The notes under the pieces are model-generated. The model made no database searches, was not told the origin of the DNA, and saw only the letters and a program-made list of their open reading frames with translations. Source: Candidatus Kaiserbacteria bacterium (GTDB taxonomy: Bacteria; Patescibacteriota; Minisyncoccia; Phycocordibacterales; UBA2100). From it: DNA of 41,444 bases. The DNA is taken from contig JACPLD010000005.1 of the NCBI GenBank assembly GCA_016186765.1, positions 79,785 to 121,228 on the forward strand. Reading direction: 5' to 3'. The position numbers and the translations under genes were made by a program. The number at the start of each line of letters is the position of its first letter. The first letter of the stretch is position 1. Positions 11,239-41,444 of the stretch are shown here, piece by piece.

Positions 11239-11310
11239 CTGCGGGGCTTGGACTCGAACCAAGATTTTCGCGTCCAGAGCGCGACGTGACTACCATTGCA
11301 CCACCCCGCA
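11239..11310 (-). tRNA. tRNA-Gln(CTG), CCA not encoded
   Basis: Cloverleaf TGCGGGG...CCCCGCA-G; anticodon arm TCGCG-CTCTGGA-CGCGA; T-loop TTCGAGT. Confidence 0.93.
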
Positions 11311-11313
11311 AAA

Positions 11314-11592
11314 TCAATACTCTCTAAATTCCAAAAGCTTGACGGCTCTCACCACCTGTTCCTTCTTTGAAATCTGGACTCTCAAAGAATCGTGATGTGG
11401 AGAAAGTCCTAACATTTTAAGTAATTTCACAACGTTTTTCAACATTGATTGATTCTTGTTTGAAAATGACAATTTGTACGTATACGTAGGTTTGTGAACG
11501 GAGTTCGATCCTTCTGCCTCACATAAGCCGCGCAAATAGCGAATAATGAAAGTTTTGTCCCTTAAGACCCATCTCGGAATGACCGACTCCAC
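11314..11592 (-). CDS. Single-motif or truncated LAGLIDADG-like endonuclease domain, possibly a remnant
   Basis: IPRWV...YLRGLCEAEGS...LSFSNKNQSML..V.KLLKMLG pattern; in-frame TAG 14 codons upstream of the GTG. Confidence 0.65.
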   Translation of the reverse strand: MESVIPRWVLRDKTFIIRYLRGLCEAEGSNSVHKPTYTYKLSFSNKNQSMLKNVVKLLKMLGLSPHHDSLRVQISKKEQVVRAVKLLEFREY

Positions 11593-19158: not shown

Positions 19159-20385
19159 TCAGACGGCAGTAAGCCGGTGCCCGAGCTTCTTCTTTTTCGT
19201 TTTGAGATAGCGCGAATTTATTGAGTTTGGTTTCACCTCGAGAGGAATGCTCTCGAGGATCGAGATTCCATGCCGTACGAGCTCGCGCTCCTTTTTTGGA
19301 TTGTTCGTAAGAAGTCGCACGGAGGAGATCCCTAGATCCTCAAGAATATGGGCTGCGGCCTCATAGGTGCGCGCATCGGCGAGGAATCCGAGCGCGCGGT
19401 TCGCCTCCACCGTGTCGAGTCCCTCATCCTGTAGCGCGTATGCCTTTATCTTGTTGGCAAACCCGATCCCCCTTCCCTCCTGGCTTAAATAGACGATGGC
19501 CCCCGAGCCGTTTTTCTTTATCCGGCGCATGCTCTCTTCGAGCTGCTCACCGCAGTCGCATCGGAGAGAAAGGAGCGTGTCTCCCGTGATGCACTGCGAG
19601 TGAACGCGCACGAGCGCTCCACTCCGGGGTTTGCCAAGAACGAGAGCAGCGTGTTCTCGATCGTCTGAAATAGATCGGTAGACAACGATATCGAATATTC
19701 CGTACTTCGTCGGCAGCCCCGCTCTCGCGAGGCGAACCACATCGGGCTGATGCGGAAGCGGGGAGAGCGGGTGTGTGTGCAGATACCGGACGAGGTCGCG
19801 TATTGTGATGATCCGTATGTTGAGTTTTCGCGCGAGCCGCACTAGTTCATTGCGCTTCGCCATGCGCCCACTTTTCCCAACGATCTCACAGAGAACGCCA
19901 GCAGGCGCATGGCCCCCAAGCCGTGCGAGATCTGCCGCTGCCTCCGTGTGCCCCGCTCGCTCGAGCAGACCTCCATCTCGCGCAACGAGTCCGAAGACGT
20001 GTCCCGGCCGCACCAAATCTTCTGCTTTCGAGCGAGGATTGGTGAGAACGCGAATCGTTCTCTCGCGATCGTGTGCAGAGACACCTGTCGTGATACCACG
20101 CCTGGCATTAACCGATACGGTGAAATTCACGCTCGTCTTCTCGGTGTTCTCGCTCTTCGGGACCATAAGCGAGAGATCGAGCCGCGCGGCCTGCGCGCGT
20201 GTGATCGCTGTGCACACGATTCCCCCGCCCTCTCTGATCATCGTGGTGATCGCTTTTGGCGTCGCGGCATCGGCAGGAATGTAGAGGTCGGCTTCGTTCT
20301 CGCGACCCGGATCGTCGATGATGAGCATCTTTCCTCTCCGAACGTCGGCGATCGCTTCTTCAACGGTACTGAATGTTTTCCTCAT
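19159..20385 (-). CDS. ribBA: Bifunctional DHBP synthase / GTP cyclohydrolase II
   Basis: DDPGRENEAD, RPGHVF, RAGHTE; RVHSQCITGD...RCDC, QEGRGIG, LLTNNP. Confidence 0.96.
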   Translation of the reverse strand: MRKTFSTVEEAIADVRRGKMLIIDDPGRENEADLYIPADAATPKAITTMIREGGGIVCTAITRAQAARLDLSLMVPKSENTEKTSVNFTVSVNARRGITTGVSAHDRERTIRVLTNPRSKAEDLVRPGHVFGLVARDGGLLERAGHTEAAADLARLGGHAPAGVLCEIVGKSGRMAKRNELVRLARKLNIRIITIRDLVRYLHTHPLSPLPHQPDVVRLARAGLPTKYGIFDIVVYRSISDDREHAALVLGKPRSGALVRVHSQCITGDTLLSLRCDCGEQLEESMRRIKKNGSGAIVYLSQEGRGIGFANKIKAYALQDEGLDTVEANRALGFLADARTYEAAAHILEDLGISSVRLLTNNPKKERELVRHGISILESIPLEVKPNSINSRYLKTKKKKLGHRLTAV

Positions 20386-20825
20386 AGTTCCGACATGAGC
20401 TCGATCATCGAAAGCGCCGATTCTGCCGCCTCGATGCCCTTGTTCTCCTTTTTTCTCGTCGCGCGCTCGAGCGCGTCCTTTAGTCGATAGACCGCGAGCA
20501 CTTCAAAAATGACGGGGATCTCGTACTCGAGGGAGACATCCATGCACCCACGTGCACACTCATTGGCAATTTGTTCAAAGTGATAGGTTTTTCCTTTCAC
20601 GATGGCACCGAATGCTATCAAGGCGTCGTATCTGCGCTTCTTTGCCAACTTCTTCGCGACAAGCGGGATCTCCAGAGAGCCGGGCACCCTGAACACATCG
20701 ATGTTTCCGACCTTCACGCCACGGCGCTTCAGCGCCGCAATGCATCGCTTTTCAAGCTCGCTCGTGACATCTTCGCGAAACGAGCTCCCGATGATGCCGA
20801 TATGTATGTCTTTGATTCTTTTCAT
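20382..20825 (-). CDS. ribH: 6,7-dimethyl-8-ribityllumazine synthase
   Basis: VPGSLEIP, GAIVKGKTYHFE, NKGIEAA. Confidence 0.95.
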   Translation of the reverse strand: MKRIKDIHIGIIGSSFREDVTSELEKRCIAALKRRGVKVGNIDVFRVPGSLEIPLVAKKLAKKRRYDALIAFGAIVKGKTYHFEQIANECARGCMDVSLEYEIPVIFEVLAVYRLKDALERATRKKENKGIEAAESALSMIELMSEL

Positions 20826-21403
20826 GCTCTTCTTGTGAGTTTCTCGATGTACTTCGCAAGTACGTCAACTTCGATATTCGCTTTGTCGCCAACTTTCACA
20901 GTGCGAAACGAGGTGCTCTCCCACGTATGCGGAATGATGCCGACGGTTACATACTTCCTTCCCGCCTTTACGACGGTAAGCGCGACGCCATTGACCGCGA
21001 TCGATCCCTTCTCGACCACATACTTCGAAAGCGTGCGAGGGATAGAAAATTTCAGCATGCGGCTGTTTCCCTTTCGCACGACGCTCACAAGTTTTCCAAC
21101 TCCATCTATATGACCCTGAACGATGTGGCCGGAAAGAAATGATATAGGCGTAGCAGGAAGCTCGAGGTTGACATAAGCGCCTCGCGGGAGATCGGGAAGT
21201 GTTGTTCGATGTGCTGTCTCGGGCATGATATCCGCCGAAAAAGAGCTCCCGTTTTTTGCGACGACCGTGAGACATGCGCCGTCAATCCCGATACTGTCCC
21301 CACGCTTGAGCCGTCGCAGAAACCTTTTGTTTGTGCTGATCGAAATCCCCGATCGTGTGCGGGTCGCAACAGTCCCCATTTCCGTGATAATGCCAGTAAA
21401 CAT
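20822..21403 (-). CDS. ribE: Riboflavin synthase alpha chain (RibE/RibC)
   Basis: MFTGII start, GDSIGIDGACLTV, GHIVQGHIDG, KGSIAVNGVALTV, NIEVD. Confidence 0.96.
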   Translation of the reverse strand: MFTGIITEMGTVATRTRSGISISTNKRFLRRLKRGDSIGIDGACLTVVAKNGSSFSADIMPETAHRTTLPDLPRGAYVNLELPATPISFLSGHIVQGHIDGVGKLVSVVRKGNSRMLKFSIPRTLSKYVVEKGSIAVNGVALTVVKAGRKYVTVGIIPHTWESTSFRTVKVGDKANIEVDVLAKYIEKLTRRA

Positions 21404-21425
21404 AAAACCCCGTTCGTTCGGGGTT
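21398..21425 (-). terminator. Riboswitch terminator hairpin overlapping the ribE start
   Basis: AACCCCG-AACGAA-CGGGGTT then TTATGTTT. Confidence 0.7.
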
Positions 21426-21457
21426 GCATCCATTCACCCAAAAAAAATGGGCGGACT

Positions 21458-21651
21458 TTCCTTCTTTCCCTACTACGCTCGCCTGCGGCGAGCTTCGAAG
21501 GGTCCTGCATAGCTTTATGCGACGCAGGACATCCCGACTATACGGTCGGTCGCGGGATTGAACCGCAGTCGTGTCCCGACATATGCCAGGACTCGCGGAC
21601 TCGCCTTGCGGCTTTACCGCCGATTGGGACTCACACCCAACCCCGAAGGAA
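21458..21651 (-). ncRNA. FMN (RFN) riboswitch with an internal insertion
   Basis: CTTCGGGG-TTGGGTGTGAGTCCCAA-TCGGCGGT...GTCCGCGA...GCGGTTCAATCCCGC-GACCGAC-CGTATAGTCG-GGATG; P1 TTCCTTC/GAAGGAA; upstream of rib operon. Confidence 0.9.
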
Positions 21652-21680
21652 CAGGGGAAGTGTACCACACTTTATTCGTG

Positions 21681-22664: not shown

Positions 22665-22865
22665 TCAGTAGAGGTGCGCGCTGGCGCCGTTGCGCTTGCG
22701 TATTTGCTCCGAGGCAGGGAGTGTCGCGAGCATGCCCTCGACCTTTCTAGGTGAGAGGGTCCCCTTGTCGAAGCAGTGCTGCAAGATGGACTTTACGTCG
22801 ATGACAAGGAAGCTGTCATCAGACCATGGAACGAGCTGTTCCAGTAATTCGGTCGACATCATCAT
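22665..22865 (-). CDS. Small hypothetical protein
   Basis: 66-aa ORF with SD-like AGGAGAG upstream and a hairpin near 22605-22630 downstream. Confidence 0.45.
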   Translation of the reverse strand: MMMSTELLEQLVPWSDDSFLVIDVKSILQHCFDKGTLSPRKVEGMLATLPASEQIRKRNGASAHLY

Positions 22866-23104
22866 AGGTCACTCTCCTATATCTGCCTTCACGATCAGAG
22901 GCGATGCTCATCAGACCTCGACAAGCACTGCCGACTGACCGCGAGGCTATCTCGTGCACTCCGCTACACCCACGGGCACTTTACATCTTGCGGGGCCGTG
23001 GTCAAGAAAGAGCTGTGCATACGTGGTGCCTGCCTTCAGAATGCAGAACCGTATACAAAACGGTGTCCAGCTTTGACGTTTGCGCGCTCGACCGGACGAG
23101 AACC

Positions 23105-23234
23105 TCTGGGAAACCCACGGTTTTCCCATTCCTTCCTCCACGAGAAAACAAATGTTTTCCCGACCCCCCCCTTCCCGTTCAAATCCCGACAGTCACAAAC
23201 GCAAAATCAGATACCGATTCGGTATCTGATTTTG
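23105..23234 (-). other. Structured 3' trailer of tRNA-Asp
   Basis: 15-bp perfect stem 23202-23216/23220-23234; antisense T-arm 23177-23188; stems GGGAAAAC/GTTTTCTC and TGGGAAA/TTTCCCA. Confidence 0.6.
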
Positions 23235-23238
23235 ACGT

Positions 23239-23316
23239 TGGCGGGAGCGACGGGATTTGAACCCGCAACCCCTTCCGTGACAAGGAAGTGCTCTATCCAG
23301 GTTGAGCTACGCCCCC
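23239..23316 (-). tRNA. tRNA-Asp(GTC), CCA encoded
   Basis: GGGGGCG...CGCTCCC-G-CCA; CTTCC-TTGTCAC-GGAAG; TTCAAAT. Confidence 0.95.
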
Positions 23317-33267: not shown

Positions 33268-33351
33268 TTAAAGAACAGAGAACAGAGAACAGAGAACAGT
33301 CGATGAATTGGCATTTCTCTGTTTTCTGTTTTCTGTTTTCTGTTTTCTCAT
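33268..33351 (-). CDS. Putative 27-codon bridging mini-ORF between pilT and pilC
   Basis: ATG overlaps pilT TGA; MRKQKTENRKQRNANSSTVLCSLFSVL; TAA 3 nt before pilC ATG. Confidence 0.3.
   Translation of the reverse strand: MRKQKTENRKQRNANSSTVLCSLFSVL
33272..33348. repeat. Inverted pair of heptamer arrays in the pilT-pilC spacer
   Basis: (AGAACAG)x4 at 33272-33299 and (GTTTTCT)x4 at 33321-33348. Confidence 0.9.
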
Positions 33352-34415
33352 AGCAATTTCTGCAGCACGTTCGGGTTGAGTGAGAACTGGTAGGCGCTCT
33401 CGACCGTGATCTCTCCTCGCGCCACCAATTCCGCAAGCGAGCGATTCATGTCTATCATGCCCTCGCTTGAGCCGGTTTCGATAATAGTAGGAAGCTCATG
33501 GGTACGACGCTCGCGGACGAGATTCGCGACCGCCTTGTTGTTGATGAGGAGTTCGTACGCCGGGATAAGACCGCCAGAGACACGCGGGACGAGACGCTGG
33601 GAGAAAATCCCTGCGAGCGAGGCTGCAAGCTGCAGGCGGATCTGGTCCTGCTGCGAGGCAGGAAACGTGTCGATGATTCGATCGACGGTTTGCGCGGCAT
33701 CATTCGTATGCATCGTCGAGAAGACAAGGTGGCCGGTTTCCGCGGCAGTCACGGCAGCAGCCATCGTTTCCGGCCCGCGCATCTCTCCCACCAAGAGCAC
33801 GTCGATGTCTTGCCTGAAGGCGGCTTGGAGTGCCGTCGCAAAATCCTTTGTGTCGATGCGGACTTCCCGCTGATCGATGAGTGACTGCTTCGGCTCGAAC
33901 ACGTACTCAATCGGATCTTCTATCGTTACGATATGCTCCATTCGCTCTGTGTTAATGAGCTCGATGAGAGAGGCGAGCGTCGTCGTCTTTCCCTGCCCCA
34001 CGGGCCCCACGACAAGGAAAAATCCCTGCGTCTTCCTGGCAAAGGTCGTGAGAACATCCGGAAGATTCAACTCCTGCACGGAGCGAATCGTTTTCGGGAT
34101 GAGGCGGAGCGCGATCGAGATCGAACCGCGTTGAAAGAAGACGTTCCCGCGGAACCGATTCCGATCCTCGCTCTCGTAGGCAAAATCGAGCTCTTTTTCC
34201 GCAAGAAATCGCCTCTCCTGCTCGGGCGTGACGAGTGTCTTCAAAAAGCCTAGTGTATCCTCGGGCAAAAGTACCGGTTCTTTGAGCATCGGTGTGAGCA
34301 CTCCCGACGTGCGGATCGTGGGATGCGCACCCGCCGAGAAGTGCAGATCACTCCCGCCCTCGTGCGAAAGCACGTTGATGTATTTTTTCAAAGTCGCACC
34401 ATACTCGATCGCCAT
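33348..34415 (-). CDS. pilT: Type IV pilus retraction ATPase PilT
   Basis: SDLH, GPVGQGKTTT, TIEDPIE, AFRQDIDVLLVGEMR, AETGHLVFSTMHT; start MAIEYG. Confidence 0.93.
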   Translation of the reverse strand: MAIEYGATLKKYINVLSHEGGSDLHFSAGAHPTIRTSGVLTPMLKEPVLLPEDTLGFLKTLVTPEQERRFLAEKELDFAYESEDRNRFRGNVFFQRGSISIALRLIPKTIRSVQELNLPDVLTTFARKTQGFFLVVGPVGQGKTTTLASLIELINTERMEHIVTIEDPIEYVFEPKQSLIDQREVRIDTKDFATALQAAFRQDIDVLLVGEMRGPETMAAAVTAAETGHLVFSTMHTNDAAQTVDRIIDTFPASQQDQIRLQLAASLAGIFSQRLVPRVSGGLIPAYELLINNKAVANLVRERRTHELPTIIETGSSEGMIDMNRSLAELVARGEITVESAYQFSLNPNVLQKLL

Positions 34416-34443
34416 AGGATGTATTGTATCGTACTCTTGGCAC

Positions 34444-34839
34444 TCATTTTTTCCTTTTTGCGATCTCCTCCGCGACTGCTTGAACAACTTCGGAGGGGAT
34501 CATACTTGCCTTCACGATGTAGCGATGCACACCAAGCGATTCTGCTTTCGACCTCTCTGCCGGGTCGCTCATGTTCGTAAGCGCGATGAGGGTAGCTCCG
34601 GGAGCCACGTGGCTCTGTGAGAGCTCATCGAGAAACGAGAAGCCGTCGCGCTCGGGCATCGTGAGATCAAAGACGATAGCATCAGGCGCAAAGCCGGCTT
34701 TAAGTGCGGCAAGTGCTTCAGCGACAGAAAGACACGTCTGTACGGTATAGCCAGCAGAGGTAAACTTCATGCCGTACATATCCGCCAAAAACTTGTCGTC
34801 ATCCACAAAGAGCACATTTCCTTTTGTCGCCTCGTTCAT
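34444..34839 (-). CDS. Single-domain response regulator (CheY-like)
   Basis: VLFVDDD, VFDLTMP, ALTN, IVK all intact; no output domain. Confidence 0.9.
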   Translation of the reverse strand: MNEATKGNVLFVDDDKFLADMYGMKFTSAGYTVQTCLSVAEALAALKAGFAPDAIVFDLTMPERDGFSFLDELSQSHVAPGATLIALTNMSDPAERSKAESLGVHRYIVKASMIPSEVVQAVAEEIAKRKK

Positions 34840-36542
34840 ATAGTTTCGCCTTGTTCCTTCTGCTCTGTCTTCTCCTTCGCGGCGGATTCTTCCGCCTCAT
34901 TTTCTCCCAAGAGAAGCGCGGAGAGCGTGTTGACCTCGGAGTACGGAACGAGCTTATTGAACGCCTTCACCAGCGCATCTTCTCGCATGGTGAGCATGCC
35001 GCCCTCTCGCGCAGTCTCCCAGAGTCTCGACTCCACCGGATTGTCGAGAATGATACGCTCGATATCCCGCGACATCTCCAGCACTTCAAAAACGGCCATG
35101 CGACCCCGCAGACCGGTGGGCGATGTGGCTGTCCGCTTCGGCTCCCAGACTTTCTGCGGTATCTTGAAGCGATACTTCGCGGCAAGCGACGAAAGGTCGG
35201 CTTCAATCGCCTTCCGGTCGCTCGCAGAGAGGTCTACTTCCTCGCCTCCCTCTTCCGCAAGCGTTCGCACGAGACGCTGCGCGATGGAGAGGATCAGCAC
35301 AGGTGAGATGAGGTAGGGCTCTACGCCCATGTCGATGAGGCGCGGGATGGTGCCGACGGCGTCGTTTGTATGAATCGTCGAGAGCACGAGATGGCCTGTT
35401 AGAGCCGCCTGAATCGCTAATTTTGCTGTTTCGCCATCGCGTATCTCGCCGACCATGATGACATCTGGGTCCTGACGCAAGGTTGTGCGCAAGCCATTGG
35501 CGAAACTATAGCCGATCTCGGGACGCACTTGCGATTGCGTGACCCCTTCGATGAAGTATTCGATCGGGTCCTCAAGCGAGAGCACATTTTTGTGTTCGCG
35601 GTCTACCTCCGAGAGCATTGAGTAGAGCGTCGTCGATTTACCGCTCCCCGTGGGACCCGAGATGAGGATGAGCCCGTGGGGCCTTGTGATGCCATTGCGG
35701 ATCAACTGGAGATTGCGCTCCGTGAGGCCTATTCTTTCGAGGGGAATGAAGCCTTGATCGCGATCGAGGATACGGATCTCGACCTTCTCTCCGTAGTACG
35801 AAGGAAAGGTGGAGACGCGGAAGTCGATCGCACGCCCGTCGATTGAAGCCGAGAAGCGCCCATCTTGCGGCTTTCGTTGCTCGTCGAGCCGAATAGAGGC
35901 AAGTACCTTGATACGCGCGATCAAGGGACGGAGCGTCGTAGAAGGCAGGACGACGCTCGTGTGCAGGTCGCCGTCGACGCGGTAGCGTACGCGCACGCCG
36001 TGCGCTTGCGGTTCGATATGGACGTCGGAAGCCTTGCCATCGATCGCATAGCGGAGAATGGTCGATACGATCTTGATGGTCGGCGCATCTTCCTGAATAT
36101 TCTTCTCGAGGCTCGTATCTGTCTGCGCAAGCGTTGTGTCGAGATCTAAGGGTGCAGCTTCTTCGGTGCTGCGCGAGAGCTTCTGCTCGGTCTGCAGATC
36201 TGTGATCGCGCGATCGACCTCTCCGCCGAGCCCTTTATACATTCGCAAGATACTTTCAAAGTCCGCTTGCGATATCTGGTAAACCTTAAACGGCACCCCC
36301 GTGCCGCGCGCGATAAAATTCAAGGCATCGAACCCGCCGATGTCGTCGGGGTCGACCATACCCACCTCCAAGATCCCGTCCACCACCCCAAGCGGCGCAA
36401 GCTTGTAGTGCTCGGCCGACTCCTGCGGAATGTAACGCAGCACTTCATAAGGAACTTTCGAACCCCCGAGGCTCCGCGGCGGAGCTCCGAGCGCTGGGGC
36501 AGGCGCTCCCCCGACCGTGTTCTGTGTTGCGGAGGTGGGCAT
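34836..36542 (-). CDS. pilB: Type IV pilus assembly ATPase PilB/GspE
   Basis: ASDVHIEP, PQDGR, GPTGSGKSTT, LRQDPDVIMVGEIRD, TGHLVLSTIH, QRLVR. Confidence 0.94.
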   Translation of the reverse strand: MPTSATQNTVGGAPAPALGAPPRSLGGSKVPYEVLRYIPQESAEHYKLAPLGVVDGILEVGMVDPDDIGGFDALNFIARGTGVPFKVYQISQADFESILRMYKGLGGEVDRAITDLQTEQKLSRSTEEAAPLDLDTTLAQTDTSLEKNIQEDAPTIKIVSTILRYAIDGKASDVHIEPQAHGVRVRYRVDGDLHTSVVLPSTTLRPLIARIKVLASIRLDEQRKPQDGRFSASIDGRAIDFRVSTFPSYYGEKVEIRILDRDQGFIPLERIGLTERNLQLIRNGITRPHGLILISGPTGSGKSTTLYSMLSEVDREHKNVLSLEDPIEYFIEGVTQSQVRPEIGYSFANGLRTTLRQDPDVIMVGEIRDGETAKLAIQAALTGHLVLSTIHTNDAVGTIPRLIDMGVEPYLISPVLILSIAQRLVRTLAEEGGEEVDLSASDRKAIEADLSSLAAKYRFKIPQKVWEPKRTATSPTGLRGRMAVFEVLEMSRDIERIILDNPVESRLWETAREGGMLTMREDALVKAFNKLVPYSEVNTLSALLLGENEAEESAAKEKTEQKEQGETI

Positions 36543-36545
36543 AGG

Positions 36546-36890
36546 TCAGCGCGTCGGGAAGAGTTCCCTCCCCTGCGACGTACTCGTGGGACGGTACGAG
36601 GTCGGCGCAAACGGATTTGGCCGCCCGACCGGCTCAGGGATGATCTGCGTCCCGAAATCTTGCAGCAGCTGGAAGGCCGGATCGGAGAATACCGTTCCGG
36701 AAAGGGAGACGGCGCGCAGCTGTAGGAGCGTGCCGACGAGCTCTTTGTCGACACTGCCGCCTCCCGCGGCTTCCGTCGTCAGGAGCTCACCTTCTTGCGG
36801 CGCATCGGAGAGAAACCACCATGCGCCTATTGCCACAAGGACCGAAGCGCCAACCAAGAGATACCATTTATATTGTGAGAAAAGCTGCAT
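36546..36890 (-). CDS. Small membrane-anchored pilus accessory protein (PilP position)
   Basis: N-terminal TM, GRPNPFAP motif, downstream of pilO. Confidence 0.65.
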   Translation of the reverse strand: MQLFSQYKWYLLVGASVLVAIGAWWFLSDAPQEGELLTTEAAGGGSVDKELVGTLLQLRAVSLSGTVFSDPAFQLLQDFGTQIIPEPVGRPNPFAPTSYRPTSTSQGRELFPTR

Positions 36891-36894
36891 ACTA

Positions 36895-37464
36895 CTACTT
36901 TAGCCAGTACGTCCTAATGGTGATGTCGTAGCGATATCGGGGCTCCTGCCCCGAGCTATTGTCGCTTCCCCCTTGCAGGCTCAAGCTGACGGGGTCGACG
37001 ATGCGGAGGCTTTGCCCAAGCTCTTCGATGAATCCCCTGAAATTTGCATAGGTGCCATGCGTTGTGAACTTGAGCGTGAGCGAATTGAACTTCTGCCTCC
37101 CGCCTCCGATTGCACCGATCGCTCCTTTTTCCGAGTTCGCCGTTGGGTTCGAGAGCGTGACGTTCTGTAGTGCCATGCCATGCCTGCCTGCGAGGCTGTC
37201 GAGATCGAGGACAAGCCGCACGTTGTCGACATGATCCGGAAGCAGCTTGTGGAGCCGGTCGATGTCGATGGGGTTGAACGCGTTGTAGCGCGAGAGAAGC
37301 GACTGCTTGAGAGCCTGCAGCTCGGCCGCTTTCTTGAGTGCCTGGTCGTATTCCCCAATCTCTGTTTCGAGCGCGAGAACTCTTTCATACGTCGGCTGCG
37401 TATAGAAGAAGAGCACGCTCCCCGCTATCGCTAGTGCCGCTATCGAAAGGACGATCCTTATCAT
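36895..37464 (-). CDS. pilO: PilO-like alignment protein
   Basis: TM, coiled coil, LLPDHVD...GTYANFRGFIEELGQSLRIVD...TYWLK. Confidence 0.8.
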   Translation of the reverse strand: MIRIVLSIAALAIAGSVLFFYTQPTYERVLALETEIGEYDQALKKAAELQALKQSLLSRYNAFNPIDIDRLHKLLPDHVDNVRLVLDLDSLAGRHGMALQNVTLSNPTANSEKGAIGAIGGGRQKFNSLTLKFTTHGTYANFRGFIEELGQSLRIVDPVSLSLQGGSDNSSGQEPRYRYDITIRTYWLK

Positions 37465-38159
37465 AGGTTATTCTCCTCCTCTCCGAGGGATGCCCCTCCT
37501 TCGGGAATCGGAGAGATAGAAGGCGCACCGAAAGGAAATGTTTGTTGGGGCGCCGCGGGAGCGGGGGGAACGACGAGGAGCTGCGCGAAATTTATCGCAA
37601 GAGGATCCACACTCGCAGAAAGGCTGAAGTGCACGCCGTCAATCTCGCGGTTGATGTTCGAAAAAACGGGGCTTGTGAACATGCCATCTTCGGAGAAAAG
37701 GTCGGCCTGTAGCGCGATGCCATTCACGCTTCCCGCGACGCCGTCCATCTGTACCGCCATGTTCTCAGCATCCGCTACCTCAAAGTCGAGCGAGGTGAAG
37801 CCGACAGAGCCTATCGTGTTTCGTTCGAGCATTTCAAAGATCGCCGACGGCGCGATGTGCTTTTGGAGTATCTCGCTCGCCGCCTGCATGCGGTCGTCGA
37901 GGCGCGTCAGCTCCGCAATGAGCGATGGCTCGAATGCCGCCTTCGCACGCTCGAGCTGCTCGATCTTCGAGGCGGCGCTTGCCGCAAGATACTCGCGGTA
38001 GAGAAAGATGCCGATCGCAAGCGCGACCGATGCGACTAAAAGCACGATGGCGATGAGTGCGAAGAGATCAGCAAGACCCTTGCCGCTGCGGCGCACTGGG
38101 CCGGCAGCGACAGGCGCCTCGTGGGGAATGAAACTCTGCGGTACGCTCGATGTGGGCAT
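37461..38159 (-). CDS. pilN: PilN-like alignment protein
   Basis: TM, coiled coil, ferredoxin-like C-terminus; located between pilM and pilO. Confidence 0.7.
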   Translation of the reverse strand: MPTSSVPQSFIPHEAPVAAGPVRRSGKGLADLFALIAIVLLVASVALAIGIFLYREYLAASAASKIEQLERAKAAFEPSLIAELTRLDDRMQAASEILQKHIAPSAIFEMLERNTIGSVGFTSLDFEVADAENMAVQMDGVAGSVNGIALQADLFSEDGMFTSPVFSNINREIDGVHFSLSASVDPLAINFAQLLVVPPAPAAPQQTFPFGAPSISPIPEGGASLGEEENNL

Positions 38160-38166
38160 ACATTGC

Positions 38167-39315
38167 TTAGGTACTCTTCAATTTACGAAGTATGAGGCCT
38201 GCCGAAACTGAAAATCCCGGACCTATCTCTCGCAGCACGTCCGCAAGAAATGCCGGTGCCTCCGTCCGGGCAAAAGGGTCCGCGATGACAACGTCGGCGC
38301 TCAAGGATGACTTCGCCTCCCCTGAAAGGCCGGGGAGCGATGCACCGCCGCCAGTCAAAACGACGCGCGACACATTCTTGTTGTATCGCTGCCCGTAGCT
38401 CAATAGTACCCGATTCACCTCCGAAAAGAGACGCGAGAGTGTTGATAACAGCGCAGATTTGATGCGGTCGTTCTCGTCGGCCGAATAGGCGGGAGAATCC
38501 TCCAAGCCGCGCTCGCGCTTCACGCGCTCCGCTTTCTCAAAGTCCCAGTTGAGCGAGCGCGCTAAGGTCTCCGACATCTGCTGTCCTCCCATTGAGACGA
38601 GATGCGTGAGCCGCACGATGCCGCGCTCAACGATGTACATTTTGGTCGTCGAAGCGCCGATGTCAACGACTAAGACTGGCGCGATGCCACGCGAAAGTGA
38701 GGAGCGTATTGCACCGAAGATCTCGATCTCGTAAAACTCCACATGAATGCCCGCCGTCGAGGCGACCGTCTGGAAACTATTCACGACGTCGTTGTGAATA
38801 GCAACGAGGAGCACCTCTACACCCCTAGGCTTTTGCGCCGGGGCCTGCACACGGTCGAAGGCGCTCTTCTCTTCCTCGTCTTCCGGAATAACGAACCAGT
38901 CGAGCGTCACCTCCGAGACGGGAACTGGAATGTATTTGCGCGCTTCGATCGGGACCATGCGCTTCAAGGTTCCCTCGTCTACCTTCGGGAACTCGAGCAC
39001 GGAGATGAGGCTTGAGGAAAATGGGATAGAAAGGCCGGCCGAACGAGCCGTTACGTTCGCCTCCTTCATCAAATCCATAAGTGCTTCAGCTGTCTTTTCA
39101 GGCGTAAGCTTCACCGCCTTGCCGACCGGTTGTCCGCCGTAGGGGCCGAGCGCGATTTCGCCGTAGGTTTCGAGGATCGCCGCACCATGCGAGGCACGCA
39201 TCTGCACGACTTTCACCGAGCTCGTGCCGATGTCGATGCCTAAGAAACTTCCTTCTGCGCCGCCGCCGAATGCGGAAGAAATTTTTTCCGTGATACTGCC
39301 TAGCGAGAACGCCAT
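38167..39315 (-). CDS. pilM: Type IV pilus assembly protein PilM
   Basis: GIDIGTSSVK, VDIGASTT, VLTGGGASLPG actin-like motifs. Confidence 0.93.
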   Translation of the reverse strand: MAFSLGSITEKISSAFGGGAEGSFLGIDIGTSSVKVVQMRASHGAAILETYGEIALGPYGGQPVGKAVKLTPEKTAEALMDLMKEANVTARSAGLSIPFSSSLISVLEFPKVDEGTLKRMVPIEARKYIPVPVSEVTLDWFVIPEDEEEKSAFDRVQAPAQKPRGVEVLLVAIHNDVVNSFQTVASTAGIHVEFYEIEIFGAIRSSLSRGIAPVLVVDIGASTTKMYIVERGIVRLTHLVSMGGQQMSETLARSLNWDFEKAERVKRERGLEDSPAYSADENDRIKSALLSTLSRLFSEVNRVLLSYGQRYNKNVSRVVLTGGGASLPGLSGEAKSSLSADVVIADPFARTEAPAFLADVLREIGPGFSVSAGLILRKLKST

Positions 39316-39522
39316 CGCGGGTAATTATAGCCTAACGAAGCGAGAGAAGTGTGAGCTTGTTCACACTTCCGAGCGAGTGACGGCTAAACGAGCGAAGCGA
39401 CTATATCACCCCTCTTTCACGCTATTTGGTCAATCTTCGCCACTTGGCGGGTATTGCCGTGCCGTAGCCGCCGCATCGCCAGAAATCTCATCCATCACTA
39501 CATCAAAAACTATATCAAAAAT

Positions 39523-39548
39523 TCGGCTCCGCCGGAGGGCGGAGCCGA
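39523..39548 (-). terminator. Intrinsic terminator of the 40040 gene
   Basis: TCGGCTCCGCC-GGAG-GGCGGAGCCGA followed by ATTTTTG on the minus strand. Confidence 0.7.
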
Positions 39549-39590
39549 GGACAAAGGAATCAAGGACAAGTGCCAAGATTCCAGTGCCAA
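39549..39590. repeat. Degenerate heptamer array between stop codon and terminator
   Basis: Minus strand ttggcac tggaatc ttggcac ttgtcct tgattcc tttgtcc. Confidence 0.45.
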
Positions 39591-39593
39591 GTT

Positions 39594-40040
39594 CTACTTG
39601 CCGAAGCGGAGCGCAGGACTGCGCGCGTCCCAGCCGTAGCCGAGCCAGATCCAGCACAACACCACCTCGCCGCCGCGCTCGATGAGGTAAGGGACGCTGA
39701 GGCCGCCGTAGTTGCGGCTCAGCACGACGGACTTCCAACCGAACACCGCTTTGCCCTTGAAGTGCTTGCGGAAGACTTCGATGCCGAGCTTCTGGATTGC
39801 AAGCAGGTCGCGCAAGTCGTGGTGGTTCTTGAGATCGTCGGCACTCTTGAGGTACTCGTAGATCTCCTTGCCACCCGCGACACCGGTCTTCTGCTTCTCG
39901 TGGAGCCACTGCTCCACGTCGCCGAGGTTGTACTCGGCAGGACCCGTCGCTTCCAGTTCGGGGTGCATCGGCTTTTCCACCCAGTCAGGATAGAAGATTG
40001 GAATCGAGCGGTCGATGCGGATGATCTTGCCATGAGCCAT
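39594..40040 (-). CDS. Hypothetical protein (start MAHGK)
   Basis: GAGGAG SD-like motif upstream; protein-like composition ending VPYL...W.WL...W....PALRF. Confidence 0.75.
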   Translation of the reverse strand: MAHGKIIRIDRSIPIFYPDWVEKPMHPELEATGPAEYNLGDVEQWLHEKQKTGVAGGKEIYEYLKSADDLKNHHDLRDLLAIQKLGIEVFRKHFKGKAVFGWKSVVLSRNYGGLSVPYLIERGGEVVLCWIWLGYGWDARSPALRFGK

Positions 40041-40093
40041 GGCGTCATCTCCTCTCGGGTTGGTTGATGGTGATGCCGTGGTAAGTTCAAGGT

Positions 40094-40152
40094 TTGCCAC
40101 AGCGGGAAAATACCAAGGTCCGACCTTGGTAGAAATCTTTCCGCCATGGCAA
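40094..40152. promoter_or_regulatory. Long hairpin / 21-bp palindrome upstream of the 40040 gene
   Basis: TACCAAGGTC-C-GACCTTGGTA nested in a 12-bp outer stem. Confidence 0.55.
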
Positions 40153-40197
40153 AATTGCACTTTCTCTCAAAGAACAGGGGGGCAAATTAAACTACCT

Positions 40198-40524: not shown

Positions 40525-40538
40525 GGGAAAATCCTAGC

Positions 40539-41192
40539 ATGGCTCTCTGGAAAGAGATCATGAATTCCGCTTTGGATGCCATTTTGCCAAGGCGGCAGCG
40601 GCGTGTGAGAACGGAAGCGAGGCAGTTGCATGATATTCCGCTCCTCCCTGTTCCGCACGATATATTGGGCGTGCGGATTACGACATTGATGGAGTATCAG
40701 AATCCAGCAGTCGAAGATTTGATCCGCTCTCTCAAGTACGATGGCTCCTCACACGCCGCAAAGCTCGCGGCCGCCGTGCTCGCAGATTACCTGCAAGAAG
40801 AACTCGCCTCGCAGCACCTCTTTTCTGCACAAAAAACGCTGATCGTCCCCGTTCCGCTACACAAAAGCCGTGCGCGTGAACGCGGTTGGAATCAAATCGA
40901 GCTCGTTTTGCAGGAACTGCCCATTGAGTACCGCAACGGCACGCTTGCAGAGCTCGCGCCTCACGCGCTTACGCGAACACGCGCAACAAAACCGCAGACA
41001 AGGCTTCCGCGTTCTGAGCGACTTTCAAATGTTGCCGGCGCTTTCGCACTCAACGACGAGTCACTGGTCCACAGCGCGCACGTGTTTCTCATCGACGACG
41101 TAACGACAACCGGTGCAACACTTGCGAACGCCGCCACCCCGCTTCGTCGTGCCGGCGCAAACGTCACGCTTCTCGCTCTCGCGCGAGCATAG
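40539..41192 (+). CDS. comF: ComF-family PRTase-like competence protein
   Basis: LIRSLKY, VPVPLHKSRARERGWNQ, Q..L.R.ER..N, LIDDVTTTGATL. Confidence 0.88.
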   Translation: MALWKEIMNSALDAILPRRQRRVRTEARQLHDIPLLPVPHDILGVRITTLMEYQNPAVEDLIRSLKYDGSSHAAKLAAAVLADYLQEELASQHLFSAQKTLIVPVPLHKSRARERGWNQIELVLQELPIEYRNGTLAELAPHALTRTRATKPQTRLPRSERLSNVAGAFALNDESLVHSAHVFLIDDVTTTGATLANAATPLRRAGANVTLLALARA

Positions 41193-41231
41193 AGCGACAG
41201 ACGAAGGTCAATGTGGTATTTTTAGCTCGCC

Positions 41232-41320
41232 GGAGAGGTGGCTGAGTGGACGAAAGCGGCACGGTGCTAACGTGTTAGGCGGGTAAAACTGTCTCGAGGG
41301 TTCGAATCCCTCCCTCTCCG
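41232..41320 (+). tRNA. tRNA-Ser(GCT)
   Basis: GGAGAGG/CCTCTCC-G; GCT anticodon; long variable arm; TTCGAAT. Confidence 0.93.
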
Positions 41321-41322
41321 CA

Positions 41323-41399
41323 TATGCAAAGCGGCTGGCTTTTGCCAGGCCGTTTTGCATACTGATGGAGCAAGCGAGAGCTTGCGAAGGGATTCGAAC
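41323..41399 (+). other. Structured 3' trailer of tRNA-Ser
   Basis: Hairpin 41323-41361, hairpin GCAAGC-GAGA-GCTTGC 41370-41385, antisense T-arm AGGGATTCGAAC 41388-41399. Confidence 0.6.
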
Positions 41400-41444
41400 A
41401 GCGGAGCGATGCCGAGCGAGCACGCGAGGCCGCGAGCTGGTGCC

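Follow-up and report, generated by a model that had tools for sequence, protein, structure and literature searches.

Why should the DNA behind a tRNA gene carry an inverted copy of that gene's own T-arm? The question is raised by a 41,444-nucleotide (nt) stretch of a Candidatus Kaiserbacteria genome, here called the window, in which a preliminary description had noted that 12 nt of tRNA-Ser, GTTCGAATCCCT (41300-41311), are complemented by a trailer at 41388-41399, and had proposed a tRNA-linked element or processing switch of no described family. Our analysis suggests that the trailer is probably the target-complementary segment of a small mobile element without open reading frames (ORFs), widespread among Patescibacteria, which inserts site-specifically into conserved gene ends and keeps the genes intact. 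The element is most likely a non-autonomous integrative element guided by base pairing. Loci used for comparison carry L-numbers (L011, L047 and so on).

Inverted copies that follow their own tRNA

Two hairpins (41323-41361 and 41371-41384) lie between the tRNA-Ser segment and the trailer, which is its exact reverse complement. In the list below, copy 1 is the intact gene end, T1 the hairpin directly behind it and the guide the trailer itself; a structured module, of family A or B, follows the guide.

41232-41320/1 (+): tRNA-Ser(GCU), the intact target gene (ARAGORN; Rfam tRNA, 53.4 bits)
41300-41311 (+): tRNA-Ser target segment GTTCGAATCCCT, comprising G53, the T-loop and positions 61-64, which pairs with the guide (from the sequence)
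41323-41361 (+): hairpin T1, terminator-like, directly behind copy 1 of tRNA-Ser (from the sequence)
41366-41384 (+): TGGAG, partly complementary to the acceptor 3' strand, then hairpin Ha at 41371-41384 (from comparison of family B)
41388-41399 (+): guide, the trailer AGGGATTCGAAC, exact reverse complement of tRNA-Ser T-arm positions 53-64 (exact match)
41400-41444 (+): 5' part of a family B module, ending at the window end (near-identical module at the L047 tRNA-Met)
41403-41410 (+): within that module, the AGC-GGAGCGAT box, followed by hairpin Hb (41411-41430) and then CGCGAGCTGGTGCC (from the sequence)

ARAGORN and Rfam call seven tRNAs in the window. In agreement with the preliminary description, the match at tRNA-Asp is likewise 12 nt long and starts at G53, giving the register 53-64 in both, and each trailer follows its own tRNA at both positions at which tRNA-Ser and tRNA-Asp differ. 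The remaining five tRNAs, described there as lacking the motif, show no inverted match longer than 7 nt. When 41296-41444 is folded, the T-arm pairs with the trailer (-78.8 kcal/mol, z = -6.7, equalled by none of 200 shuffles) and T1 forms the tip of the resulting long predicted hairpin, of which a terminator scan flagged only the inner part of T1, 41336-41352, as terminator-like.

A given 12-mer is expected by chance within ~120 nt about 7e-6 times. Forty-five loci of related species were fetched through the HD-domain gene adjoining tRNA-Asp, a selection blind to the trailer, and the last 40 nt of the 92 tRNAs in the window and these loci were compared with the 250 nt on either side. Inverted exact matches of 10-19 nt lie downstream of 22 of the 92 tRNAs, whereas upstream, the control, none reached 10 nt and the longest was 9 nt; together with the low expectation this excludes chance and bears out the proposal that the arrangement is recurrent. 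The matched sequence varies with the tRNA, being GACGGGACTCGAA for Asp (TTCGAGT loop), GAGGGACTTGCA for Met and CGGATTTGAACCGG for Thr. A covariation check of T-arm against trailer was also positive, as the trailer tracks its own tRNA across about 32 anticodon types.

Architecture of the element

The 12-nt match is the most conspicuous part of an ORF-less element of 150-250 bp. Read in the sense of the target gene, all instances examined have the same order of parts: copy 1, T1, guide, structured module, a repeat of the left arm L with an altered centre, and copy 2. Copy 1 consists of the left arm L, 1-3 central nucleotides and a right arm R reaching to the gene end. The guide is a reverse-complement copy of R, centre and L that directly adjoins the conserved module, and copy 2, the slightly altered direct copy of the tRNA 3' end behind the module, is the right arm that the host had originally, together with the sequence downstream of it, placed after L and the altered centre. 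Sequence past the motif had been noted to differ between the two window loci; the Ser and Asp modules are indeed of two different families, which are built as follows.

Family A: (A)GGGGTC, hairpin 1, GTGGAGGAAGG, an optional hairpin, TGGGAAAACCG(T/A)GGGTTTCCCAG
Family B, 5' part: acceptor-strand complement, hairpin Ha, inverted T-arm copy, RGCSGGAGCGAT, hairpin Hb
Family B, 3' part: CGCGAGSY, a further hairpin with a CGACGG-type loop, second copy

Family A was sampled by searching metagenome contigs with a 23-nt module pattern, which gave at least 120 loci and at least 128 instances. Across 105 instances of family A, a linker of 1-6 nt ending in GGAA(A) joins the inverted copy to the 5' side of the module, and 2 nt behind the module's 3' side lies a target-identical L arm of 4-6 nt. 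The guide always keeps a fixed register with the module, at a variable distance from T1. Elements of the T-loop class have GTTC (positions 53-56) as L and positions 57-58 as centre, which is why both window matches start at G53, a boundary that recurs in all T-loop-type instances; L arms seen include GTTC, CTGC, GTCC, CTAC, GCAA, CCACA and TCCAGG, among others. The centre of copy 2 has 1-3 nt, differs from the target and is mostly T (AA to TT, GA to T, or C to T, the last giving G-U). A helix between guide and copy 2, with 70-150 nt between its arms, has a central U-U, G-U or bulge.

Among 105 instances the longest exact match of the guide to its own copy 1 had a median of 11 nt and reached 22 nt. 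The corresponding medians were 5 nt for copy 2 and 6 nt for an unrelated control, and in 98 of the 105 the match was longer to copy 1 than to copy 2. These lengths imply that the guide would pair perfectly with its target and imperfectly, across a central internal loop, with the element's own junction.

One family A subfamily (L068, L070, L084, L108, L109, L137, L142) has as its copy 2 centre a 9-nt bulge, AGCGAAGCG, containing GCGAAGC, which is an unusually stable DNA mini-hairpin; this bulge would hint at a form in single-stranded DNA (ssDNA).

Two further traits of family A modules may be recorded. A facultative nested domain of ~55 nt (CGACC...GGTAATC...GAAGTACCC) lies within hairpin 3 or hairpin 1 in L023 (~11340-11400), L036 (~11240-11300) and L150. 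A GGAGG followed by a 5-nt spacer and ATG, TTG or CTG occurs in the module of the window (23139-23106) and of L122, L114, L173 and L102, and at the rpmG and rpsI targets described below the frame led by GGAGG continues without a shift into the displaced end of the gene (as in MGKPWVSQSCLWCRKQTVHKEAKK, then stop). As only two independent targets are involved, the in-frame run may be chance.

The Asp locus holds a complete family A copy, all of it on the minus strand.

23239-23316 (-): tRNA-Asp(GUC), the intact target gene, copy 1 (ARAGORN and Rfam)
23262-23251 (-): tRNA-Asp target segment GTTCAAATCCCG, positions 53-64 (from the sequence)
23203-23233 (-): hairpin T1, an A-run, a 14-bp stem and a T-run (from the sequence)
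23188-23177 (-): guide CGGGATTTGAAC, exact reverse complement of tRNA-Asp T-arm positions 53-64 (exact match)
23170-23106 (-): family A module, with GGGGTC, hairpin 1, GTGGAGGAAGG and hairpin 3 (TGGGAAAACCGTGGGTTTCCCA) (covariance model R1)
23103-23082 (-): copy 2, GTTC-tc-GTCCGGTCGAGCGCGC, an older 3' end of tRNA-Asp, now displaced (from the sequence)

The match of R1, the family A covariance model, to this module (86.7 bits, E = 1.4e-18) is its only one in the window. Between target segment and trailer the Asp locus has a single hairpin, T1, which is nearly the same as the T1 behind the L012 tRNA-Asp and was not flagged by a strict terminator scan. The acceptor strand of the displaced end (…CCGGTCGAGCGCGC, then AAA) fits the tRNA-Asp of relatives with an empty site, such as L011, and not the present tRNA-Asp of the window. 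A Logan unitig of the same organism stops at 23134, inside the module, as expected where a repeat is multi-copy. Beyond the displaced end lie ~215 nt of non-coding DNA (22866-23081, minus strand), which contain a sigma-70-like promoter match (23005-22978) and the string CTGATGAG and could be the remains of an older element. They are followed by a 66-aa ORF (22665-22865) that has no Pfam match and whose identical protein occurs in a Logan sample.

The Ser element is a family B copy that ends inside the element at the window edge, and up to there it conforms to family B base for base. TGGAG and Ha (CAAGC-GAGA-GCTTG, 41371-41384) form a 5' extension of the guide region that is typical of family B, as comparison with L012, L017, L021, L027, L028 and L047 indicates. 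Its nearest relative stands behind the L047 tRNA-Met (AGCGGAGCGAT-hairpin-CGCGAGCTGGTGCC...) and runs on for ~70 nt into ...GAGAG-CCCCACCCCCGACAC, which is its copy 2. By analogy, the Ser element is predicted to continue beyond 41444 with ~60-70 nt of module and then a centre-mutated tRNA-Ser 3' end (GTTCGA...CCCTCCCTCTCCG-like). If integration proceeds as modelled below, the tRNA-Ser 3' part from the T-loop onward would be supplied by the element as copy 1, and we infer that the crossover lies after T-loop positions 57-58.

The exact Ser trailer has no match in the metagenome contigs, and Logan unitigs of the same organism, identical to the window, end at 40537 or 40736. Compared with two relatives (ComF 82% and 77% identical), synteny breaks at 40539-41321: tRNA-Ser stands behind comF in the window only, and in the relatives a purT-like or a lycopene-cyclase gene directly follows comF. 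In L008 a tRNA-Ser(GCU) lies 4 kb off on the opposite strand, followed by a stretch containing GGGATTCG and GCGACGGC that may be a degraded family B element.

Target range and evidence for DNA insertion

The proposal that the arrangement is linked to tRNAs did not hold. At least 78 of the 128 family A instances listed lie 71-315 nt behind a tRNA on the same strand, representing the ~32 anticodon types mentioned above. Instances without a called tRNA stand at the 3' end of rpmG (...CKWC...KEAKK, stop), at the 3' end of rpsI (...PQWSKR, stop), at the 5' end of a glycosyltransferase gene, where the orientation is antisense, and at tRNAs apparently split by insertions (introns) and overlooked by ARAGORN. 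These targets keep the layout of functional gene end, hairpin, inverted copy, module and displaced second end. In all, one family A module is found with more than 35 different target sequences, each tracked by its guide. The split tRNAs (L083, L089, L098, L104) share a conserved 'gatgatatagtcc...' before the T-arm and 3' end, and their T-loops are still targeted.

At rpmG and rpsI, copy 1 and copy 2 differ at 61 codons, 54 of them synonymously and 7 non-synonymously. As the differences are mostly synonymous, each end must have belonged to a functioning gene of a separate lineage before the two were joined. Judging from these codons, the element is equipped with a gene end of its own and was acquired by horizontal transfer. 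Mutagenesis of the A-to-N type known from diversity-generating retroelements was considered as the source of the differences and rejected, since G, C and T positions are changed as well and the changes are mostly synonymous.

Occupied and empty sites make up an insertion polymorphism between loci: in L011, L020, L027 and L050, tRNA-Asp runs straight into the HD gene with neither hairpin nor element. Tandem arrays occur, with B then A in L043, A then B in L069 and two R1 (family A) matches in L079, and insertion therefore regenerates the target site.

In these genomes, tRNA genes are hot spots of mobile DNA of several types. Close upstream of them lie LAGLIDADG_3 ORFs and, separate from these, a helix-turn-helix (HTH) family of 231 aa, whose ORFs directly abut a tRNA gene (L066 504-1193, L087 804-1544, L107 3834-4559, L117 1405-2130; also L081, L104, L112, L118, L144 and L147).

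A covarying fold with no match in the libraries searched

In an alignment of 43 diverse family A modules, helix 1 (hairpin 1) shows compensatory changes at 6 of its 9 pairs, with 93.8% of cells paired, and in helix 3 (hairpin 3) G-C alternates with U-A (30:13). At 0.185, against 0.084 for shuffled alignments, the covariation score was reached by none of 500 shuffles and drops when the partners are slid. The G-U pairs (17 cells) fall on the strand that has the same sense as the target gene. These patterns indicate that the family A module is a folded single strand.

That the element matches no described family, as the preliminary description had suspected, was supported in the libraries searched. 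Rfam 15, searched at E<=10, gave chance-level hits only for the modules of the window and of seven related loci, the other hits in the window being tRNAs and a flavin mononucleotide (FMN) riboswitch. R1 gives no detection of family B. A scan of IMG/VR with two module patterns returned chance hits only, and blastn against INPHARED phages and PLSDB plasmids found no module match. We found no description in the literature in a limited search, and an earlier description under another name is possible.

A model for guided insertion

One module serves more than 35 unrelated targets and therefore cannot be read by protein-DNA contacts alone, so base pairing is the economical explanation. In the model, the guide would recognise the target by pairing with its sense strand, and an enzyme acting in trans would bind the conserved module and carry out strand exchange immediately 3' of the central nucleotides. 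On excision, L and the altered centre would be joined to R', and the guide could pair with this junction of its own element, which would mimic the target. The intermediate would be single-stranded, circular or with juxtaposed ends, and read R', T1, guide, module, L and altered centre; with the guide paired over the junction between altered centre and R', it would be a rod-like molecule capped by T1 and the module. The order of parts after integration is the one expected if such an intermediate recombines just 3' of the central nucleotides.

More tentatively, the element may be a non-autonomous member of an undescribed, programmable insertion system guided by nucleic acid, in which a module of ~65-150 nt and a guide of 10-22 nt bring an enzyme acting in trans to any given sequence, for insertion by a seamless 'gene-end swap'. 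Such a system might have been retargeted dozens of times, reaching almost every tRNA T-loop as well as acceptor ends, rpmG, rpsI and further sites, a range that we put forward with the same reserve.

Several points weigh against guided insertion. No moving enzyme was found: clustering of 1,828 ORFs from element-bearing loci showed no recurrent recombinase. The surroundings of four Y1 loci in other lineages of the candidate phyla radiation (CPR) held no family A module within 10 kb. We observed neither an excised form nor, in any single population, a polymorphism of empty and filled sites. The guide still matches copy 1 perfectly, and the model does not account for what limits repeated insertion or self-targeting; nor does it account for the acquisition of new targets, for which guide, arm and carried gene end must change jointly. 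The folded species may be RNA or ssDNA, between which the covariation data do not decide, and the single-sequence fold of the Asp element is no better than that of shuffles (z = -0.98). The family A sample was collected by the module pattern, which may bias the target spectrum, and the far end of the Ser element falls outside the window.

The ORF clusters comprised only housekeeping families, LAGLIDADG and the HTH family upstream of tRNAs, and the latter two are unrelated to the element. A Y1_Tnp domain (PF01797) is present in L079 (E = 3.5e-10), a Y1-type ORF with an HUH motif was found in L091 by regular expression only, and L189 has two Y1_Tnp genes 8 kb apart. In L154 a degenerate rpsI-type family A element, with no rpsI nearby, is directly preceded by a transposase remnant (1206-1328), the N-terminal 40 aa of a Y1 (IS200/RAYT-like) protein. 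Y1_Tnp is very widespread in CPR, and given the module-free surroundings of the four Y1 loci, nothing ties it to the element.

Comparison with known systems

Each system compared has at least one defining feature that the element lacks. The closest analogy is with IS200/IS605 elements and their relatives, PATEs and REP/BIME-RAYT. Like these it lacks terminal inverted repeats, is ORF-less as their miniature forms are, and has hairpins near its ends. In IS200/IS605 a guide at the 5' foot of a hairpin pairs with the cleavage site 3' of the hairpin and with the target, and the layout of guide, module and L arm here would fit this topology: the guide adjoins the module at its 5' end, and the L arm, 2 nt past the 3' end of the module, pairs over 4-6 bp. 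Also shared are strand-specific folding, insertion 3' of a recognised sequence and a donor site that can reseal exactly. However, the guide of IS200/IS605 has ~4 nt and recognises one fixed tetra- or pentanucleotide, whereas here it has 10-22 nt and changes target by target. Unlike IS200/IS605, the element also carries a replacement gene end, leaves a displaced copy and has no Y1 transposase linked to it.

As the model proposes for the element, bridge (seek) RNAs of IS110/IS1111 elements direct programmable, orientation-specific insertion, specified by base pairing with a structured non-coding module (PMC11208160, PMC12288879), and small non-coding modules can be mobilised in trans, as illustrated by ssr9 of ISPpu9, which consists of the RNA gene only (PMC12288879). 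They differ in that the bridge RNA has two internal loops with split target and donor guides and a shared core dinucleotide, whereas the guide here is single and contiguous, with a donor junction nearly identical to the target and differing centres (for example AA versus TT). No ORF in or beside the elements encodes the DEDD/Ser recombinase that is the hallmark of IS110/IS1111. We know of no gene-end replacement in IS110 elements. For the element described here we prefer the analogy of an IS200/IS605-like 'peel and paste' with a lengthened guide, to which an RNA-guided recombinase of the IS110 type would be the alternative.

Other systems share single traits. Group II introns, which pair through exon- and intron-binding sites (EBS/IBS), and other homing elements also home to conserved sites and carry an internal base-pairing sequence that covaries with the insertion site; unlike group II introns, the element has no ribozyme domains by Rfam and no reverse transcriptase ORF, is not spliced out and replaces a gene end. 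The module of ~100 nt gave no Rfam match to a group II intron and contains no ORF. In folded ssDNA sites such as CTX phage attP(+) and integron attC, inverted copies ~70-150 nt apart form a target-like stem with an unpaired or mismatched centre. The part order here (site, short genome, inverted copy, loop, hybrid site) fits an intermediate of that type. However, CTX attP(+) and attC are read by the sequence-specific XerCD or IntI with a fixed partner, whereas here the stem changes with every target, and the stems share no common sequence such as a XerCD/dif-like or IntI R/L-box motif.

Alternative explanations

Integrative islands and prophages of tyrosine integrases target tRNA genes from the T-loop to the 3' end, restore the gene with an element-borne end, are flanked by attL/attR repeats and occur in tandem arrays. 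The elements could therefore be scars or miniatures of such islands, with the direct repeats as attL/attR and the inverted copy as a by-product without a targeting role, made for instance by outward extension of a terminator palindrome through template switching. A direct repeat of the tRNA 3' part does flank the insert (copy 1 and copy 2); gene-end repeats with an element-borne replacement end and tandem arrays are typical of islands, and the Asp spacers flanking T1 are partly palindromic (7 of 13 positions). We nevertheless consider this origin improbable. The islands are kilobases long, encode an integrase and have one attachment core per integrase, without an internal inverted target copy or a structured module common to dozens of targets. 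One module with more than 35 unrelated targets goes beyond a core read by protein, the arm of copy 2 left of the crossover also follows the target, and there is no integrase gene nearby; indeed no recombinase, integrase or transposase gene lies within the elements and no ORF fits inside them. The fold covaries as expected of RNA or ssDNA, with G-U pairs, and the guide is in fixed register with the module at a variable distance from T1.

Alternatively, module and guide may form a guide RNA for a nuclease encoded in trans that cuts empty sites, homing being completed by homologous repair in competent Patescibacteria. The order of a 5' guide and a 3' scaffold would suit such an RNA, the central mismatches of copy 2 would protect the displaced copy, and the target motifs are ultra-conserved, as in homing elements. 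The window also encodes type IV pilus and ComF competence genes: a pilus cluster with PilM, a PilO-like protein, two T2SSE ATPases and a response regulator occupies 33300-40160, together with a pterin-4a-carbinolamine dehydratase and ComF. Machinery of this competence type bears on how the element could spread horizontally. Copy 1, however, is a perfect target in the upstream context of an empty site and would be cut too, no nuclease was identified, and the origin of the carried gene end and of guides for new targets would be left over. Nuclease-driven homing is thus an unlikely account.

The processing or folding switch of the preliminary description would place the trailer in the tRNA transcript, where pairing with the T-arm marks read-through or controls 3' maturation. 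The hairpin of T-arm and trailer is very stable, the element is co-oriented with the tRNA and complementarity is kept. Such a switch is nevertheless very unlikely, as the same module and layout stand at the ends of protein genes and, antisense, at a gene 5' end, orthologous tRNAs (tRNA-Asp among them) lack the element, and a terminator-like hairpin stands between tRNA and trailer. The displaced second gene end, copy 2, with its nearly all-synonymous differences is the signature of a DNA insertion. The earlier interpretation is thus partly supported: the trailer is recurrent and matches no described family in the libraries searched, yet it is not confined to tRNAs, and a role as a processing switch is unlikely.

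There is next to no chance that the match is left over from a convergent tRNA or marks the start of a transfer-messenger RNA (tmRNA) or other tRNA-like RNA gene, an origin already refuted for the complete Asp locus. In its favour, GGATTCGA resembles the conserved tmRNA 5' region, and the T-arm sequence comes close to a palindrome. However, no T-stem can form from the bases on either side of the match, and the pattern recurs at non-palindromic T-loops and at targets other than tRNA. ARAGORN and Rfam (E<=10) called no such gene on either strand (41380-41444 minus; 23100-23200 plus), at the Ser locus as far as the window reaches.

Implications and other features of the window

If targeting works by base pairing, the element would represent a natural, very compact and retargetable system for site-specific insertion in ultra-small genomes, relevant to the biology of mobile elements and as a possible scaffold for genome engineering. 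Irrespective of mechanism, it explains a large share of the "non-coding" DNA beside tRNA and ribosomal-protein genes in Patescibacteria, as well as breaks of contigs and unitigs at the ends of these genes. Many tRNA 3' ends and gene ends in these genomes are chimeric and horizontally acquired, and annotation should beware of pseudo gene ends and false small ORFs. The modules also provide a new conserved structured-RNA or ssDNA motif, in two families, for curation.

Elsewhere in the window, the FMN riboswitch (21517-21654, minus strand, 68.7 bits) lies upstream of a riboflavin operon that encodes a lumazine-binding RibE-like protein (20822-21433), DMRL synthase (20382-20825) and RibBA (19159-20385).

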